From sequence record QB031382.1: DNA of 64,000 nucleotides. One strand, 5' to 3'. The notes under the pieces were generated by a model that had not been told where the DNA came from, searched no databases, and was given only the letters and a program-made list of their open reading frames with translations. Position numbers and translations under genes: made by a program. Below are positions 57,752-62,454 of this stretch, piece by piece. Position 1 is the stretch's first letter, and every line of letters begins with the position of its first letter. This DNA comes from a phage.

Positions 57752-58162
57752 ATGTCTAAAATGCTATATATCGTGCGTGGTCTACCAGGTTCTGGCAAAT
57801 CAACACTGGCAAATGCACTATCTTTAGAGGGGCTGTACCCACATTTTGAGAACGACATGTTCTGGTACGACGACGATGGAAATTACAACTGGGATGCAAG
57901 TAAAGTAACACTTGCAGCAAAATGGTGCAAAGATAACGTAGAAGATATGATACGTATGGGATACGACCGTGTCGTGGTAAGTAATACGTTTACAAAAGAA
58001 AAACATGTGCAAGAATATGTTGACATGGCAATCAGTCATGGGTATAGTTATACTGTGATCGTGGTTGAAAACCGCCACGGTAATAAGAGCATTCATGATG
58101 TTCCAAATAGGGTTGTGGACCGTATGGAGCGTGAGCTTAAAAACTGCATTAAACTAAAATGA
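57752..58162 (+). CDS. P-loop kinase, polynucleotide kinase-like
   Basis: GLPGSGKST Walker A, VVVSNTF; size and layout like the T4 Pnk kinase domain; RBS GGAGG. Confidence 0.5.
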   Translation: MSKMLYIVRGLPGSGKSTLANALSLEGLYPHFENDMFWYDDDGNYNWDASKVTLAAKWCKDNVEDMIRMGYDRVVVSNTFTKEKHVQEYVDMAISHGYSYTVIVVENRHGNKSIHDVPNRVVDRMERELKNCIKLK

Positions 58163-58169
58163 GGGATGT

Positions 58170-58724
58170 ATGAAATATTTTGTAACAAGCGATACACACT
58201 TTCTCCACCAGCGAGTCATGGAGTTTGATTCATGTCAAAAACACAGATCTCAGTATGATCGCAATCTTGACAGTATGAATGCAGGAATCATCGCCGAGTG
58301 GAACTCTGTTGTGTCACCGGAAGACACTGTGTTTCACTTGGGCGATATTGCATGCACTAAGGATAAGAATATCAACAAATTTCTCCCAGATGTTCTAAAT
58401 ATGTTGAACGGACATATTATTCTTGTTCGTGGTAACCATGACACAAGGACGACTGTCAGAATTATGAAAGAGTTCGGTCATGAGGTTGTAGATTATTACG
58501 AGCTTCGCCACAACAAGAATTTGATCTGTATGAGCCATTACCAGTTTGCAAAGTGGAACAGAAAGCCTCACGGATCAGTCCAACTGTTCGGTCATGCTCA
58601 CGGAACCACACAGCAGTTGTTTGGCAGGCAGTTTGATGTCGGTTGGGATGTGTGGGGGAGACTCTTACCATTAGAAGAGGCATACCGTATTGCAATGAGT
58701 CTTGCTATTGACAGCGGGGAGTAA
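58170..58724 (+). CDS. calcineurin-like metallophosphoesterase
   Basis: TSDTH, GDIA, VRGNHD, GHAHG metal-binding motifs. Confidence 0.65.
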   Translation: MKYFVTSDTHFLHQRVMEFDSCQKHRSQYDRNLDSMNAGIIAEWNSVVSPEDTVFHLGDIACTKDKNINKFLPDVLNMLNGHIILVRGNHDTRTTVRIMKEFGHEVVDYYELRHNKNLICMSHYQFAKWNRKPHGSVQLFGHAHGTTQQLFGRQFDVGWDVWGRLLPLEEAYRIAMSLAIDSGE

Positions 58725-58771: not shown

Positions 58772-59122
58772 ATGAAAGATGGGGATAAGCTACTATATCT
58801 TAAAGTCCCCCTTGAAATACTGTCTATGTCAAAAGTTTTGAATGACACAACCGGGGAGGTTGTTGTTCTTGACTTATATGACAAGATCGTATACTGCTAC
58901 CTGCACAACTGGTATAAGCTTGGAGGAAATTCACGCTTCACACCCAGCACAAGGAAAATTGCAGCAGATGTTGGGATAAAGAAAACAAAAGCAGCAGCGT
59001 GCGTTAAAACTTTAGAATGTGCAGGAGTGGTTGAAATATCCACACAAGGGAGAGGTAAAAGATGTACATTTTCCAAAGTTTTGCCGCCAGAGGAAGTTAT
59101 TCGAATGGCAACAACTGGTTAG
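58772..59122 (+). CDS. putative winged-helix DNA-binding protein
   Basis: Track ORF; STRKIAADVGIKKTKAAACVKTLECAGVVE looks like an HTH; directly upstream of palindromic operator array. Confidence 0.4.
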   Translation: MKDGDKLLYLKVPLEILSMSKVLNDTTGEVVVLDLYDKIVYCYLHNWYKLGGNSRFTPSTRKIAADVGIKKTKAAACVKTLECAGVVEISTQGRGKRCTFSKVLPPEEVIRMATTG

Positions 59123-59197
59123 ACCAGTAAAAACTTAAATATCTGTACTATAAAGGTTCGTATGTTTTATGTTCACTTTGGAGCTAAGATTATTAAC

Positions 59198-59257
59198 TGT
59201 CCGCCACGCGGACACATCTGCCCGTAATACGGACACTAACTGTCCGCAATACGGACA
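59198..59257. promoter_or_regulatory. array of palindromic operator-like sites
   Basis: TGTCCGC-CAC-GCGGACA 59198-59214, TGTCCG-CAATA-CGGACA 59241-59257, partial site between, centres about 21 bp apart. Confidence 0.65.
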
Positions 59258-59762
59258 CATAAAGAATATAACTAAAATAACTAAATAATAAAAATAAAAG
59301 ATCTAGTACTTATGGTACTAAAGTACATATACTTAACTTATGTAGAATATACTAGATCCTAAGTACCATGTTTTAAATTTATTACTTATTATGGGTAGTG
59401 TCGGCCCCTCATTGGCACTCGCCTACGAGGGGGCGAGATGCCGGGCCTCCATAGTGCACACAATAACAGGAGTGCATACATGCAGGACTGTTAACATGTG
59501 TGGGAGCGAAGCGATAGCGCAGGCCAAAGGCCGAGCACTAATGTGGACCACCGACGAAAGCTTGCCAGCGCCGTAAGGAGTCGGTTGAGAGACTCCCGCG
59601 CGAGTTTGGTTAAAGTTTATGTGTGGAAACGGACAAGAAGGCTCCTAAATCTCACCACAGCTGTGTAAACTCTACCAAGTAAGGCAATCGCACCAGTTTG
59701 ATAGAAAAGCTCGTTACAAAGCGATACAGTGAGTTTTTCTATAACTTGAAGAGGAGGCAGCT

Positions 59763-60341
59763 ATGAGTTCACGCAAAGATGACCGCGAAAAGATTGCAAA
59801 ACGTTATCAGAATGAAGAACAGATGGAGAAAACTTTCAAGTGGAAGCCAGGTTTCCAGCGTAATCATTCTAACGCTAGTGATCGTAAGCATCCGGATAAG
59901 TGGCTAACACCGCCAAATGATGGCATGCAGGTTGGTGATGAGAAGGAGCTATCGCCTGGAAAAGATGGCAACTACATTCGCACTAAGGACGCTGGTCCAA
60001 AGGATGACAGCTATCTTGTAGATAAAGTTCTTGATGGTATTGATGTAGATGTTGACACTACACGGAACTTTTTTCTTGGGTGGTATCGCACAGGTTTTTT
60101 CGACATCAAGGCCATTCGTCGTGTTTGTGATATTAAAAAGTCTGCATATGATGACGACTCGTTACATCGCACCCTGAGACAATATTCAGAAAGATATGGT
60201 CATCCGGTTATCACTCTTGACGATGTTAACGAAGTGATGTATCATGCAGAGGTTGTTGCAGGAAGATTTGGTGATGCATATCTGGATATCCTTTCTGCAA
60301 AGGATGAGGTAATGTTAAATAAGATTTACTATGAACGCTGA
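59763..60341 (+). CDS. hypothetical protein
   Basis: Track ORF; RBS GAGGAGG. Confidence 0.6.
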   Translation: MSSRKDDREKIAKRYQNEEQMEKTFKWKPGFQRNHSNASDRKHPDKWLTPPNDGMQVGDEKELSPGKDGNYIRTKDAGPKDDSYLVDKVLDGIDVDVDTTRNFFLGWYRTGFFDIKAIRRVCDIKKSAYDDDSLHRTLRQYSERYGHPVITLDDVNEVMYHAEVVAGRFGDAYLDILSAKDEVMLNKIYYER

Positions 60342-60353
60342 GAGGGGAGATTA

Positions 60354-60542
60354 ATGAATAATCCAGTAGCAAAGAACTGCAATAAGTTCAACAAGTCTGC
60401 AATTCACACTGACAGGAAAAAGAGCTGGTCGCCAGACATTGATGAGGAGCTTGAGAATTACTTTGAAGATCTGGTTACCAATGCAGGTGAGGTTGCGATT
60501 AAAGAATACACAGACAGGAGGTATAAGGCCGGAATCTGTTGA
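60354..60542 (+). CDS. hypothetical protein
   Basis: Track ORF; RBS GGGGAG. Confidence 0.45.
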   Translation: MNNPVAKNCNKFNKSAIHTDRKKSWSPDIDEELENYFEDLVTNAGEVAIKEYTDRRYKAGIC

Positions 60543-60618
60543 CAAAAATAATGTTACCTGATAAGATCTGCAATATGATGTGATACAATTTTAACTTACG
60601 AGGTCTACAGGTAATGCT

Positions 60619-60861
60619 ATGTTTAAGGTTAAGCTCGTTTTCCGTTCCATGAATGAGGATTATTTAGAAGATGAAGGTGAATTTCGTGCACTAGATGATG
60701 CAATAGATTTTGCCAACGACTTAGCTTGTATGAATACGGGTTATGGTTTATGTTGTTGGGATGGTGGTGTTCAGATTGGTGATAGCAAGATCTTCTACTT
60801 CTACCCTGAGCCCGATAACAAACAAATTAAGTATGTTTTATTTATTTGTGCTTTACAATGA
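60619..60861 (+). CDS. hypothetical protein
   Basis: Track ORF. Confidence 0.45.
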   Translation: MFKVKLVFRSMNEDYLEDEGEFRALDDAIDFANDLACMNTGYGLCCWDGGVQIGDSKIFYFYPEPDNKQIKYVLFICALQ

Positions 60862-61149
60862 GGTTGTTTTCGTGTATCATGATGAATATCCAATTTAAAG
60901 ATGAGTTTGATGGCTTTATCTCCGGATGCTTTGAAACAGGGTTCGGAGAAGTCTGAGTTCCCCTTAGAGGGCTTGATAGTGCACCACACTTAAAATGGTA
61001 GGGGCAGCCAGCACATGACGATGTGACCCCAGCCAACCTGTAATAAGGTCGAGCCAAAGCGCGGTAATGGGTCTCTGGTAACCCACTTGTTGGGTCTTGC
61101 TGGTCCAGGACGCTGGGCAAGTCGCAGGGAATACCACCCTGCGGCGAAC

Positions 61150-61178
61150 TTGACAATCAGTATTTGCCGTGATAAAAT
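61150..61178 (+). promoter_or_regulatory. sigma70-like promoter with downstream palindrome
   Basis: TTGACA 61150-61155, 17-bp spacer, TAAAAT 61173-61178; TATCACGTGATA at 61184-61195. Confidence 0.6.
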
Positions 61179-61206
61179 CCACCTATCACGTGATAATGGA
61201 GGAAAC

Positions 61207-61545
61207 ATGGCGGATACAACTAAAAAGCGTCGCCGTAGAGGCAGACCTCTGAAAGAGGAGTCCAACGCCATTCAGCTAGAGAAGAACATTCTTGATATGA
61301 AGGAATCTTTTATAGCAATGGTTCCAGAAGCTCACAAAGTTTTAAGAGAGCTGATGTTGGATCCGAAAACCAAGCAAAATATTCGTCAAAGCATTGCAGA
61401 GTATGTTCTTGATAAGGCAGACCGAATGCAGGAAGAATATGATGAGATGTTTGGTGAAGAGGAAGAGGTGGTAGTAGAAGAGGCTGAAAAACCAGCACCT
61501 TTTATGCCGTTTACCACAGAAATACAGCCTGTTGGCAATAGTTAA
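61207..61545 (+). CDS. hypothetical DNA-binding protein (RGRP AT-hook-like), possible small terminase subunit
   Basis: Track ORF 61087..61545 trimmed to ATG 61207 after GGAGG; N-terminal KKRRRRGRPLKEE. Confidence 0.35.
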   Translation: MADTTKKRRRRGRPLKEESNAIQLEKNILDMKESFIAMVPEAHKVLRELMLDPKTKQNIRQSIAEYVLDKADRMQEEYDEMFGEEEEVVVEEAEKPAPFMPFTTEIQPVGNS

Positions 61546-61641
61546 AATATTTTCTTGACAAACTTTGCTTAACAGTGTAATATTGTAAACATGGTCTCCC
61601 ACCTTTTCTGGCGGCTCAGGTGTAAAAGAAAGCCACCCAGT

Positions 61642-61716
61642 GCCCTGTTAGCTTAGTGGATAAAGCAGCGGCCTTCTAAGCCGTTGACACTGGTTCGAGT
61701 CCAGTACGGGGTGCCA
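61642..61716 (+). tRNA. tRNA-Arg(UCU): tRNA-Arg (anticodon UCU)
   Basis: Hand-folded cloverleaf: acceptor GCCCTGT/ACGGGGT, loop CTTCTAA, T-loop TTCGAGT, encoded CCA. Confidence 0.8.
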
Positions 61717-61720
61717 AATT

Positions 61721-61807
61721 GGGGAGTTATCCCGTAGAGGTAGCGGTGTAGACTGTAAATCTATTGTCATTGCGACTCGGGTGGTTCGACTCCACCACTC
61801 CCCACCA
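61721..61807 (+). tRNA. tRNA-Tyr(GUA): tRNA-Tyr (anticodon GUA), long variable arm
   Basis: Acceptor GGGGAGT/ACTCCCC, loop CTGTAAA, T-loop TTCGACT, encoded CCA. Confidence 0.75.
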
Positions 61808-61921
61808 AATTTATATTTTTAAATGCATAAATCATACAGATAATGACATTGATATTTATCGTCGTTTATACTAGTCACTAACTGCTCGAAAATCAGTGTC
61901 ATTATCAGTGTAATTTATAAA

Positions 61922-62012
61922 GGAGGGTAGGGAGCAATGGTGCTCAAGCGGTCTTGAAAACCGTCCCGTTGAGGATGACTCGATGATGGTTCGATTCCAT
62001 TACTCTCCGCCA
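61922..62012 (+). tRNA. tRNA-Ser(UGA): tRNA-Ser (anticodon UGA), long variable arm
   Basis: Acceptor GGAGGGT/ACTCTCC with one GU, loop CTTGAAA, T-loop TTCGATT, encoded CCA. Confidence 0.75.
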
Positions 62013-62110
62013 CATTGTTGACCTTGTAATTAAGCGAAAGCCGGAAGCAGAACCGGATTATCAAATGTTACAGTCGTCATCGCCGACTAGCCACATGGTC
62101 AACATATTGC

Positions 62111-62207
62111 GCTAGGTAAGCCCTTTGGCAAGGGCGAGGATTTTTAATCCTGAAAATAGACGCGGTAGTCGTTGAATACATAGGTGGTTCGATTCCATCA
62201 CCTAGCA
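62111..62207 (+). tRNA. atypical tRNA-like gene, identity unresolved
   Basis: Perfect acceptor GCTAGGT/ACCTAGC, D-arm and T-arm (TTCGATT), but the anticodon region is a 6-bp hairpin AGGATT/AATCCT with UUU loop and about 30 extra nt; 97 nt. Confidence 0.4.
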
Positions 62208-62214
62208 CCTTTTT

Positions 62215-62290
62215 GCTGATGTAGCACAATCGGTAGTGCAATTGATTTGTAATCAATAGGTTGCAGGTTCAAGTCCTGCCATCAGCACCA
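62215..62290 (+). tRNA. tRNA-Thr(UGU): tRNA-Thr (anticodon UGU)
   Basis: Acceptor GCTGATG/CATCAGC, stem ATTGA/TCAAT, loop TTTGTAA, T-loop TTCAAGT, encoded CCA. Confidence 0.8.
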
Positions 62291-62291
62291 T

Positions 62292-62366
62292 GGCCCTGTA
62301 GCTGGAAGGTTCAAGCAAGCGACTCATAATCGCCAGACGGTGGTTCAATTCCACCCAGGGCCACCA
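62292..62366 (+). tRNA. tRNA-Met(CAU): tRNA-Met or tRNA-Ile2 (anticodon CAU)
   Basis: Acceptor GGCCCTG/CAGGGCC, loop CTCATAA, T-loop TTCAATT, encoded CCA. Confidence 0.75.
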
Positions 62367-62377
62367 AATTATAAATA

Positions 62378-62454
62378 CTCCGCGTAGCTCAGCTTGGTAG
62401 AGCGCCTGATTTGGGATCAGGAGGTCGAGTGTTCGAATCACTCCGTGGAGACCA
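62378..62454 (+). tRNA. tRNA-Pro(UGG): tRNA-Pro (anticodon UGG)
   Basis: Acceptor CTCCGCG/CGTGGAG, D-arm GCTCAGCTTGGTAGAGC, loop TTTGGGA, T-loop TTCGAAT, encoded CCA. Confidence 0.75.

Follow-up and report, generated by a model that had tools for sequence, protein, structure and literature searches.

The locus

The window analysed here, a stretch of 64,000 nucleotides, belongs to an rV5/FV3-like E. coli myovirus (Vequintavirus). An initial annotation of this DNA had singled out two GC-rich, ORF-poor and hairpin-dense segments as candidate non-coding RNAs (ncRNAs) and had placed them on either side of a tRNA cluster. ARAGORN finds seven tRNA genes, all within 61642-62454 and none in either segment, and the Rfam tRNA and tmRNA models have no match there. 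Both segments thus lie upstream of the cluster and do not flank it, segment 1 by about 1.9 kb and segment 2 by about 0.5 kb, with three small ORFs between them. The main features are the following:

59194-59390, no strand assigned: context upstream of segment 1, with three iteron-like repeats (59194-59260) followed by an AT-rich palindromic stretch
59398-59745, + strand: segment 1, a GC-rich, conserved block that has the AT-rich region on one side and the ribosome-binding site (RBS) of a 192-aa gene on the other
60852-60880, + strand: promoter-like TTTACA-17-TATCAT, a possible start of the segment 2 transcript (consensus scan only, 10/12 matches)
60858-60956, + strand: 32-aa ORF, annotated as nimi_198, with an ATG that overlaps the stop codon of the gene before it
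60957-61149, + strand: segment 2 candidate ncRNA of about 190 nt, with a 5' domain, helix P_a, a three-way-junction core and 3' hairpins
61150-61178, + strand: sigma-70 promoter of the downstream gene 61207-61545 (consensus scan; annotated P74 in rV5)
61642-62454, + strand: tRNA cluster of seven genes (ARAGORN), downstream of both segments

The compositional contrast reported initially is confirmed, with a GC content of 0.50-0.59 at 59400-59700 and of 0.49-0.55 at 60900-61200 against 0.23-0.43 in adjacent DNA. The two inverted repeats that had been quoted are present as well, GGCACTCGCC (59414-59423) with GGCGAGATGCC (59432-59442) in segment 1 and CGCAGGG (61123-61129) with CCCTGCG (61137-61143) in segment 2, and the good promoter said to end segment 2 corresponds, at 61150-61178, to a near-consensus TTGACA-17-TAAAAT that has a TG extension; the inverted repeat CGTGATA-N9-TATCACG (61168-61190) overlaps it. 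A hairpin density beyond chance is at best weakly indicated: the repeats are real but the folding z-scores are only modest (segment 1: -2.1 for the + and -3.1 for the - strand; segment 2: -1.7 and -1.3, respectively). The term ORF-poor also has to be qualified, as open frames cross segment 1 and the start of segment 2, although those of segment 1 lack an RBS. Both segments are probably non-coding. The 32-aa ORF, which occupies the first third of segment 2 as initially delimited (about 95 nt), is doubtful as a gene because it is cut to 8 aa (MKDEFDGF-stop) in an uncultured sister lineage. The promoter-like site at 60852-60880 is not annotated in rV5, and the consensus promoter scan of the window found no strong promoter directly upstream of the segment 2 RNA.

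A structured element in segment 2

The proposal that the segments encode ncRNAs is strongly supported, and sharpened, for segment 2, which carries an element of conserved sequence and structure that many phage lineages have in common and that is associated with tRNA operons; segment 1, conserved but without covariation, is at most a putative ncRNA. The candidate ncRNA of segment 2 is organized as follows, all on the + strand:

60960-60999, + strand: 5' domain, comprising the CCCCTTAGAGGG hairpin, GGCTTG and ATAGTGCACCACACT, found only in rV5-like phages and the sister lineage
61001-61030, + strand: helix P_a, GGGG (61001-61004) paired with CCCC (61027-61030), covarying
61012-61025, + strand: hairpin CACAT-GACG-ATGTG, enclosed by P_a
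61032-61071, + strand: modelled three-way-junction core of about 40 nt (model R1, cross-lineage conservation, pairing)
61032-61035 paired with 61068-61071, + strand: helix P_b (core model)
61036-61049, + strand: P_c hairpin ACCU-GUAAUA-AGGU, 4 bp with loop GUAAUA (core model)
61050-61052, + strand: junction CGA, after P_c
61053-61062, + strand: P_d mini-hairpin GCC-AAA-G(C)GC (core model)
61063-61067, + strand: junction GGUAA, after P_d
61081-61143, + strand: three predicted 3' hairpins
61081-61095, + strand: 3' hairpin ACCCA/TGGGT (inverted repeat)
61097-61121, + strand: 3' hairpin CTTGC..GCAAG with inner CCAG/CTGG (inverted repeat)
61123-61143, + strand: 3' hairpin CGCAGGG/CCCTGCG (inverted repeat)

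The near-invariant sequence of the element at 61032-61071 reads ACCUGUAAnAAGGUCGAGCC-NNN-GnGCGGUAA. Because the helices around the core covary, the element is modelled as a small three-way junction on the + strand, in which P_b would close P_c and P_d with junction strands of 0 nt, CGA and GGUAA. The corresponding covariance model, R1, has a single match in the window, the segment 2 core (69 bits, E 4e-20), and 70 matches in 68 related loci.

Compensatory changes in relatives, which the initial annotation had put forward as a check, are found in segment 2. In a set of 33 distinct cores, pairing holds in 89.8% of cells; the closing pair of P_b is AU (21), CG (4), UA (4) or UG (4) and never unpaired, and the covariation score of 0.156, against 0.056 for shuffles, was reached by 0/500 of them. 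P_c shows one A-U to G-C swap among the cores, whereas the support for P_d is limited to its invariance and two divergent second copies. In 16 T4-like sequences 96.6% of cells pair, slid controls scoring lower, and one pair equivalent to P_a is GC in ten, CG in five and AU in one. P_a covaries between rV5-like phages and the sister lineage (GGGG/CCCC versus GGAAC/GUUCC; alignment pairs 51-79 and 52-78). The G-U pairs of the element are compatible with the + strand only. Single-sequence folding of the core gave a z-score of about 0, thermodynamically unexceptional, and its minimum-free-energy folds recovered neither P_b nor P_d. Pairing of CGACC-like upstream strands with the GGUCG of the core was considered for T4-like phages and discarded, the upstream strand not being conserved on inspection.

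Around the core, the candidate ncRNA is 93-99% conserved in Vequintavirus. The sister lineage (L029, L054, L070 and L071) has retained a homolog with a consensus sigma-70 promoter on either side, an arrangement that resembles a free-standing RNA gene. Between Vequintavirus and the sister lineage the 5' domain hardly differs, against an identity of only about 69% for the region as a whole. RNAalifold pairs its GGCUUG with the CGAGCC of the core; this pairing is invariant and hence gives no covariation signal. The 3' hairpins appear less constrained, since the sister lineage has them rearranged and L090 has lost part of them.

Distribution and genomic context of the core

As judged by sequence comparison, the core recurs almost letter for letter in hundreds of otherwise unrelated phages, T4 included. 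It was found in 701 cultured phage records and in IMG/VR contigs, and the groups that bear it include T4-like phages, rV5-like phages, 46-kb siphophages of Klebsiella and E. coli, and uncultured contigs. In 69 loci, the 32-nt core is 78-100% identical to the copy of T4 taken as reference, with flanks at about 50%, which is background. A pattern search of metagenomes returned 61 matches, about half of them chance matches in GC-rich coding DNA. A 20-mer of the core has no match in 185,579 bacterial and archaeal species (one genome each), and the idea that the core was copied from, or mimics, the host genome was rejected, with no match in E. coli genomes at E up to 10. T4 carries a single copy of the motif (64859-64902), between denV and vs.8. 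Variable core positions fall in loops and one bulge, out of codon phase, and the RNA core stays fixed while the vs.8 proteins encoded downstream diverge to 37% identity.

The element usually resides inside or beside tRNA operons; T4-like copies instead precede vs.8. Same-strand tRNA genes are located 33-700 nt from the element in rV5-like phages, the sister lineage, 46-kb siphophages, Pylas-like phages, L030 and L099. It follows a tRNA by 33 nt in L099 and is itself followed by an intrinsic terminator in L030; in these two and in the 46-kb siphophages its neighbours are tRNAs and other RNA modules, and there is no ORF that it could control. T4-like copies always lie 60-90 nt upstream of the vs.8 cassette, whichever gene precedes; this constant association with one gene cassette fits a cis-acting role and counts against the explanation favoured below. 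A search of the window revealed no vs.8 homolog, and the neighbouring genes, searched against Pfam and PHROG, received no functional assignment. A conserved micro-ORF was envisaged to account for GUGCCAnGGAAyGGCCC downstream of the T4-like element and abandoned, the frame not being kept in L009 and L010. Literature searches on vs.8, rV5 ncRNAs, phage tRNA-cluster RNAs and the motif sequence retrieved nothing relevant.

Comparison with known RNAs

The covariance-model scan suggested initially detected no known family in either segment. Only tRNAs pass the gathering threshold of Rfam 15 over the whole window, and at E up to 10 the sole additional match in 59100-61700 is a spurious rli43 (14.9 bits for a gathering score of 100). 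Since Rfam offers no match, the segment 2 element is not a known RNA family.

Several systems invite comparison. The stable RNAs C and D (species 1 and 2) encoded in the tRNA cluster of T4 are small structured RNAs of the kind to which the initial annotation appealed; like them, the element is small, structured, phage-encoded and presumably made with tRNA operons. It is nevertheless distinct from them, because the motif copy of T4 lies outside its tRNA cluster. RNAs C and D are not known from outside the T-even phages, whereas the element spans several phage families. ROOL and GOLLD are large structured ncRNAs of phages and prophages that often adjoin tRNA genes; they measure 500-800 nt and are in Rfam, while the conserved unit of the element is only about 40 nt and has no Rfam match.

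Self-cleaving ribozymes, HDV-like 'theta' and hammerhead, also occur in phage tRNA clusters. The element shares with them a small size, invariant unpaired nucleotides and a location between tRNAs or cistrons, and the hammerhead is a three-way junction too. It differs in its junction strands, in the absence of an evident double pseudoknot and in matching no covariance model. A hammerhead was rejected, as junction strands of 0 nt, CGA and GGUAA do not resemble the CUGANGA/GAA/H core and no Rfam hammerhead model matches. With respect to HDV-like ribozymes, CGAGCC has a P1 partner, the invariant GGCUUG, in rV5-like lineages alone and none in T4-like or siphophage copies; on inspection, an HDV-type nested pseudoknot could not be drawn consistently across lineages, and no Rfam HDV-like model matches. 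Three-way-junction riboswitches of the purine class resemble the element in their invariant junction nucleotides and covarying helices, and in the 5' leader position it takes in T4-like phages. Conservation is indeed aptamer-like; however, the element has no conserved expression platform or model match, a promoter precedes the next gene in rV5-like lineages and many copies have no downstream ORF.

Mimicry of 16S helix 18 (530 loop, GCCAGCAGCCGCGGUAAUAC) by the core was discarded, only GCGGUAAU and GCCA being shared, and model R1 run unfiltered on the E. coli rrnH operon found nothing at helix 18, its best match of 8.9 bits lying elsewhere. Segment 1 shares CCGGGC(C)UCCAUAG with E. coli M1 RNA; RNase P RNA was rejected for this segment, as the P4 region GGAAAGUCC is absent and the RNase P models, searched up to E 10, give no match. 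ToxI-type RNAs consist of tandem 36-nt repeats. Neither segment bears an evident resemblance to ToxI in sequence, and a ToxI-type or pseudo-ToxI RNA was rejected in the absence of tandem or long direct repeats from 59390-59760 and 60862-61206. The pseudo-ToxI of the rV5-like phage PhiTE is reported to be an RNA mimic that defeats ToxIN (PMC3475682). Being an ncRNA directed against a host system, it offers a precedent in this phage group for decoy RNAs.

Segment 1

Segment 1 precedes the 192-aa gene, whose ATG is at 59763. Its principal parts are:

59414-59442, + strand: hairpin GGCACTCGCC / GGCGAGATGCC, invariant in 12/12 sequences
59496-59604, + strand: near-invariant 109-nt centre (alignment count)
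59701-59742, + strand: 12-bp hairpin ATAGAAAAGCTC / GAGTTTTTCTAT, just before the RBS of the 192-aa gene and kept in L113

The segment is present in 119 Vequintavirus records at 88-99% identity. IMG/VR was scanned with two 17-mers from it and yielded one true relative, L113, the only homolog beyond Vequintavirus (about 80% identity). In 11 Vequintavirus genomes about 10 of 113 columns of the centre are variable, against about 30% in flanking stretches. The two segments share ATAGTGCAC and a GCGCSGTAA-plus-hairpin pattern, a likeness that we attribute to chance because ATAGTGCAC is not conserved in L113; descent of segment 1 from segment 2 as a diverged copy was rejected, since model R1 finds only segment 2 even unfiltered.

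Open frames of 56-61 aa cross segment 1, one of them annotated as gp074 in the rV5 RefSeq record. As a protein gene, gp074 (ORF78) was rejected: its GTG start has no Shine-Dalgarno sequence and relatives do not keep the frame, which some have broken by indels (phages Alma and 203; L102 and L105) and which differs in L113. Within the 109-nt centre substitutions of all kinds are nearly absent, and there is no synonymous-type variation. The consensus fold of the segment reaches -92.7 kcal/mol with a covariation term of about 0, and thus no usable covariation; a promoter of its own was neither found by the consensus scan nor annotated. The 192-aa gene is found wherever segment 1 is, and is missing where segment 1 is missing. 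Since it has no covariation and no own promoter and travels with this gene, segment 1 may well be a long 5' leader, as the initial annotation had allowed, or an intercistronic region. That it forms a structured, lineage-restricted intercistronic leader of the 192-aa gene, separate from the segment 2 element, is a plausible reading to which we give somewhat less than an even chance.

Features that in sequence resemble an iteron-type origin (initiator gene, direct repeats, AT-rich element) extend over 58772-59390. The HTH gene upstream of segment 1 matches phrog_12838, 'replication initiation protein', and an AT-rich stretch also precedes the L113 homolog. The vicinity of iterons and of an AT-rich region would allow segment 1 a role at the DNA level.

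Interpretation

Segment 2 very probably specifies a genuine functional structured RNA family, and the view that this family is new, phage-wide and absent from Rfam is strongly supported. Such extreme conservation points to a partner or a chemistry common to many hosts. In the explanation that we favour, segment 2 would encode an ncRNA from the + strand, with 61032-61071 as its functional heart; the element would be produced within early or tRNA-type transcripts and could persist as a small stable RNA module, and would not serve as a gene-specific leader. Its invariant junction may be where a conserved partner, a protein or RNA of the bacterium or the phage, makes contact, or may hold a self-contained activity. 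We infer the expression, ends and stability of this RNA. A trans-acting mechanism of this sort is advanced tentatively, with a probability clearly short of one half, and the overall account, which blends the segment 2 RNA family, the trans-acting module and the segment 1 leader, is in our estimation slightly better than an even bet. It is somewhat unlikely that the element represents a functional RNA class so far unnoticed in phages of enterobacteria and other hosts, T4 included, as a ribozyme, a ligand- or protein-binding RNA or a tRNA-arm decoy.

Cis-acting leaders, riboswitch-like or controlled by a protein, would bind a ligand or protein at the junction and so regulate the vs.8 cassette in T4-like phages, the downstream transcript in rV5-like phages and, for segment 1, the 192-aa gene, at the level of translation, stability or read-through. 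The fixed position of T4-like copies before vs.8, the aptamer-typical combination of an invariant core with variable helices and the joint occurrence of segment 1 and the 192-aa gene agree with this reading, and UGGGU (61068), ACCCA (61081) and UGGGU (61091) could form alternative hairpins. We nonetheless regard it as unlikely: in rV5-like and sister-lineage phages a consensus promoter stands between the element and the gene that follows, copies among tRNAs in the siphophages, L030 and L099 have no ORF to control, the alternative hairpin is deleted in L090 and there is no conserved terminator or Shine-Dalgarno-sequestering platform. A signal for the processing of polycistronic tRNA and mRNA transcripts, which would punctuate them by cleaving itself or by recruiting a nuclease, seems quite unlikely in view of the silent Rfam ribozyme models (E up to 10), junction strands foreign to the hammerhead core and the lack of an HDV-type nested pseudoknot consistent across lineages, even though a small junction with invariant unpaired nucleotides, placed between tRNAs (as in L099) or between the cistrons of T4-like phages, and the ribozymes of phage tRNA clusters would suit such a signal.

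The loop of P_c shows U-G-U-purine as in tRNA-Tyr and tRNA-His, and anticodon loops of this kind are read by Tgt, colicin-E5-like nucleases and retron-associated tRNA-Tyr nucleases. The element could thus mimic a tRNA anticodon arm and titrate a host enzyme or defence nuclease such as these. U16-G17-U18 of the P_c region varies little or not at all and precedes A or G, the element is linked to tRNA clusters and it lies about 2.3 kb downstream of phosphoesterase genes (57752-58724) in the window, the phage nimi record having phosphoesterase and RNA ligase 1 genes in the same upstream position. A decoy is still highly improbable, given that the P_c loop has 6 or 8 nt and not 7, that the greater part of the invariant sequence lies outside this loop and that no tRNA model matches. 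It is very unlikely that the sequences act as DNA, whether as replication origin, operator array or recombination site; this reading concerns mainly segment 1, where the iteron-like repeats, the AT-rich palindromic region (preceding L113 as well), the 'replication initiation' gene directly upstream and the lack of covariation favour it, but where the conserved block is 350 nt long, asymmetric and extends to the RBS of the next gene. For segment 2, compensatory changes and one-strand G-U pairs indicate RNA. Ordinary spacers or small protein genes (gp074, the 32-aa ORF) devoid of RNA function are scarcely credible: open frames exist, are annotated in some records and accompany modest folding z-scores, but those of segment 1 are broken in Alma and Phage 203 and have no RBS, its centre is free of synonymous-type variation, and unrelated phages share a conserved segment 2 core whose variable positions are not in phase with codons.

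If the segment 2 element is the RNA that it seems to be, selection in T4 itself acts more strongly on an RNA motif so far unrecognised than on the surrounding genes, and the same motif recurs beside tRNAs in unrelated phages. Segment 1 is of lesser weight, as a lineage-restricted conserved leader or possibly an origin-linked sequence. The element is accessible in T4 and in rV5-like phages that are candidates for therapy. The analysis corrects the start of vs.8 in the T4 RefSeq record and gp074 in rV5, and supplies model R1 for the annotation of phage genomes.

Gene order around the two GC-rich spacers

Over positions 59000-61700 the window shares 97% identity with Escherichia phage FV3, and 118 rV5-like records match at least 80% of the length of this region; the window therefore belongs to Vequintavirus. 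Eighteen MG0656xx records ('Campylobacter phage ...', C. jejuni label) are 93-98% identical to this region and are probably mislabelled or from contaminated preparations. The genes are arranged as follows.

57752-58724, + strand: two phosphoesterase genes, so named in the phage nimi annotation
58772-59122, + strand: HTH gene matching the PHROG family 'replication initiation protein'
59763-60861, + strand: three small genes, function not assigned, between segment 1 (59390-59700) and segment 2 (60862-61150)
61207-61545, + strand: 112-aa gene with a promoter ahead, after segment 2
61642-62454, + strand: seven tRNAs with a further promoter ahead, after the 112-aa gene

The nimi record has an RNA ligase 1 gene upstream of the two phosphoesterase genes. 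The tRNA-like gene at 62111-62209 is unusual, with 99 nt, a 4-base ARAGORN anticodon (atcc) and 35.5 bits against the Rfam tRNA model; a similarly odd tRNA (ctgg) adjoins the RNA motif described below in a metagenome locus (L099 3587-3669).

According to the initial annotation, segments 1 and 2 flank the tRNA cluster; both in fact lie upstream of it. Both segments are indeed richer in GC (0.50-0.59 for segment 1 and 0.49-0.55 for segment 2, versus 0.23-0.43 in adjacent DNA), the two inverted repeats quoted are present in the sequence, and the promoter said to close segment 2 occupies 61150-61178, with 11 of 12 consensus positions and a TG extension. Single-sequence folding z-scores are modest (-1.3 to -3.1), so the claimed hairpin density is unconvincing by itself. 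The description as ORF-poor holds in part: open frames do traverse segment 1, albeit without a ribosome-binding site, and segment 2 opens with ~95 nt that could be translated into a 32-aa peptide, coupled to the upstream gene and shortened to 8 aa in the sister lineage (a group of uncultured relatives of Vequintavirus).

Distribution of the segment 2 element

Sensitive blastn of 60880-61160 against phage records matched 701 of them: 119 rV5-like records over the full length and about 580 T4-like records in which the match is confined to 61029-61072, at 89-97% identity. T4 carries it in the denV-vs.8 spacer, on the transcribed strand. When IMG/VR and metagenomes were scanned for the core pattern, the element (61032-61071 in the window, + strand) was located in T4-like contigs, in 46-kb siphophage contigs whose relatives include Klebsiella phages VLCpiS13d and 6991, in a Pylas-like contig (70,408 bp; likened to Klebsiella phage Pylas), in 75-118 kb uncultured contigs and in the sister lineage (L029, L054, L070, L071). 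Three T4-like loci have two tandem copies (L032 5087-5255, L034 9016-9185, L094 358-527). A 20-mer core found no match in 185,579 bacterial and archaeal species, taken at one genome each, nor in E. coli genomes.

Compared with the T4 copy, a 32-nt core is 78-100% identical in 69 loci, and the 300-500 nt on either side align at background level. The RNA core is fixed in T4-like phages while the downstream vs.8 protein drops to 37% identity. R1, the covariance model of the core, matches the window once, at the element (69 bits, E 4e-20), and yields 70 matches in 68 related loci.

Structure of the element

We model the core as a small three-way junction, preceded by a further helix, with the following parts.

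61001-61030, + strand: helix P_a, directly upstream of the junction
61032-61035 with 61068-61071, + strand: helix P_b
61036-61049, + strand: helix P_c
61050-61052, + strand: junction strand CGA
61053-61062, + strand: helix P_d
61063-61067, + strand: junction strand GGUAA

The initial annotation had proposed looking for conservation with compensatory changes in related phages, and these were found here in P_a and P_b. The base preceding ACCU pairs with the base following GGUAA in all 33 distinct sequences (AU 21, CG 4, UA 4, UG 4), and the G-U pairs assign the RNA to the + strand. P_a reads GGGG/CCCC in rV5-like phages versus GGAAC/GUUCC in the sister lineage, and one of its pairs is GC in 10, CG in 5 and AU in 1 of 16 T4-like sequences, slid controls scoring lower. 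One T4-like subgroup has CUGGU/A(G)CCAG in place of UCCCU/AGGGU, and P_c shows a single A-U to G-C swap. Across the 33 distinct cores the pairing rate is 89.8% of cells, and none of 500 shuffles reaches the covariation score; pairing reaches 96.6% of cells in the 16 T4-like sequences extended upstream. Variable positions of the core fall in three places: three P_c loop bases, the P_d NNN triplet with one bulged P_d base, and the bases immediately outside the core.

P_b and P_d are short (3-4 bp each). Support for P_d consists of its invariance and two divergent second copies, the tandem second copies being its sole compensatory evidence. These copies (L032, L034, L094) are more divergent, with GCCU...AGGC in P_c and GUC/GAC or GCC/GGC in P_d. 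Minimum-free-energy folding neither favoured nor recovered the junction (z about 0), and the modelled fold would probably need tertiary contacts or a bound partner.

Known RNAs compared with the element

An Rfam 15 scan returned no family for the element, even at E up to 10. It was detected neither as a tRNA nor as a tmRNA and both identities were rejected, as was a hammerhead, whose core the junction strands do not fit; an HDV-type fold could not be drawn consistently across lineages, and a suspected resemblance to the 16S 530 loop failed a direct R1 test on the rrnH operon. A protein-coding reading was likewise discarded: the sequence varies without regard to codon phase, and neither a conserved start codon nor a ribosome-binding site was found. 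Small phage RNAs beside tRNAs are already known as a kind (T4 RNAs C and D, ROOL, GOLLD). The element matches none of these, and T4 itself carries it. The literature searched showed no trace of it, and we consider it rather unlikely that the element represents a new functional RNA class.

Genomic context

In six contexts (rV5-like, sister lineage, 46-kb siphophages, Pylas-like, L030 and L099) same-strand tRNA genes lie 33-700 nt from the element. T4-like phages depart from this pattern: there the element always stands ahead of the vs.8 cassette. The homolog of the entire segment 2 RNA in the sister lineage is ORF-free and lies between consensus promoters TTGACA-17-TATACT and TTGACA-17-TAAACT, arranged, judged from sequence, like a free-standing RNA gene of ~175 nt. 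The 5' domain of this homolog hardly differs from that of the window, although identity over the whole region is ~69%. The nearest promoter-like site upstream of the segment 2 RNA in the window is at 60852-60880; an intrinsic terminator after the RNA is absent from the window and present in L030. An inverted repeat, CGTGATA-N9-TATCACG (61168-61190), overlaps the strong promoter at 61150-61178 at its -10 region and start site, and looks like an operator; CGTGATAA is also present there as two direct repeats.

At L002 1491-1610 (L002 being T4, NC_000866), the start annotated in RefSeq for vs.8 (219 aa) falls inside the conserved RNA motif. All vs.8 homologs, at 37-98% identity, start at MRTFLTGPYLSLMNA (L002 1611), and the first 40 annotated T4 codons are therefore probably non-coding. 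Between motif and vs.8, AUGGA...GUGCCAnGGAAyGGCCC is conserved (L002 1546-1610 and equivalents in other T4-like loci). In T4 this stretch is readable as a 19-aa ORF (MDNSCATEWPKLIELIEKK), with its stop codon overlapping the start of vs.8; L009 and L010 do not preserve the frame, and the stretch may therefore be conserved at the RNA level. Its two GGA motifs resemble CsrA sites.

In the 46-kb Klebsiella/E. coli siphophage contigs (L028 8960-9160, - strand; also L081, L025, L033), a tmRNA-like tag frame, GCA AAC GAA GAA ATG TAT CTG GCA GTA GCC TAA (ANEEMYLAVA*), lies upstream of the motif. Rfam tmRNA and permuted-tmRNA matches to this region are weak, and ARAGORN made no call there. A 1.2-kb query matched 929 records by blastn, among them Kuttervirus, Felixounavirus and Erwinia phage records that match ~126 nt around the frame. 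In these siphophage contigs the motif belongs to a series of hairpin modules that precede the tRNA genes (L028 8640-8930, - strand) and are spaced by repeated linkers ACAACAGGTAAGAGCATTG ... CAGTGCTCTTTCCGTTGTGG; one module of L027 has a tRNA-type T-arm, GGTTCGATTCC.

Possible functions

These comparisons establish an RNA element that is under strong selection, specific to one strand and built of helices that covary; it occurs in several phage families and is associated with tRNA-type operons. It very probably constitutes a genuine functional structured RNA family. More tentatively, it might act in trans as a stable RNA module: a small stable RNA would be freed from, or persist in, transcripts of the early or tRNA type, with the invariant junction contacting a conserved partner or performing its own chemistry. 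One rival explanation is a leader acting in cis, which the arrangement in T4-like phages favours; another is a decoy of the anticodon arm, to which the nearly invariant U-G-U-purine of the P_c loop would point. The element might also be a processing or self-cleaving signal, while a role at the level of DNA is considered mainly for segment 1.

Segment 1

Segment 1 occurs in 119 Vequintavirus records at 88-99% identity, its sole homolog outside the genus being in a 137-kb uncultured contig (L113, ~80% identity). The sister lineage has neither segment 1 nor the downstream 192-aa gene, and the two therefore travel together. Blocks 59398-59450, 59496-59604 and 59700-59745 are nearly invariant and the intervening stretches vary by ~30% (alignment count). 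An 18-nt deletion in two genomes takes off the top of one predicted hairpin. Segment 1 is thus conserved, but compensatory change is not apparent: RNAalifold gave a stable consensus fold (-92.7 kcal/mol) with a covariation term of about zero, so that a structure is plausible and unproven.

One open frame across segment 1 is gp074 in the rV5 RefSeq. The frames are broken by 1-nt indels in phages Alma and 203 and altered in L113, and the central 109 nt are almost free of substitutions of every kind; this pattern is unlike that of a coding region. No promoter is annotated in rV5, or appears in a consensus scan, from P76 (58708 in the window) as far as the one at 60539 (P75 of rV5); segment 1 therefore probably belongs to the P76 transcript.

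Three iteron-like copies of TAACTGTCCGC-N5-GCGGACACAT, each an inverted repeat, lie directly upstream of segment 1, at 59194-59260 with 21-22 nt spacing; next come 140 nt of 23% GC that contain nested palindromes. The interval 59194-59390 looks like an iteron-type origin or operator array. Since these repeats and the AT-rich palindromic stretch come just after the HTH 'replication initiation' gene, segment 1 might have a replication-origin role.
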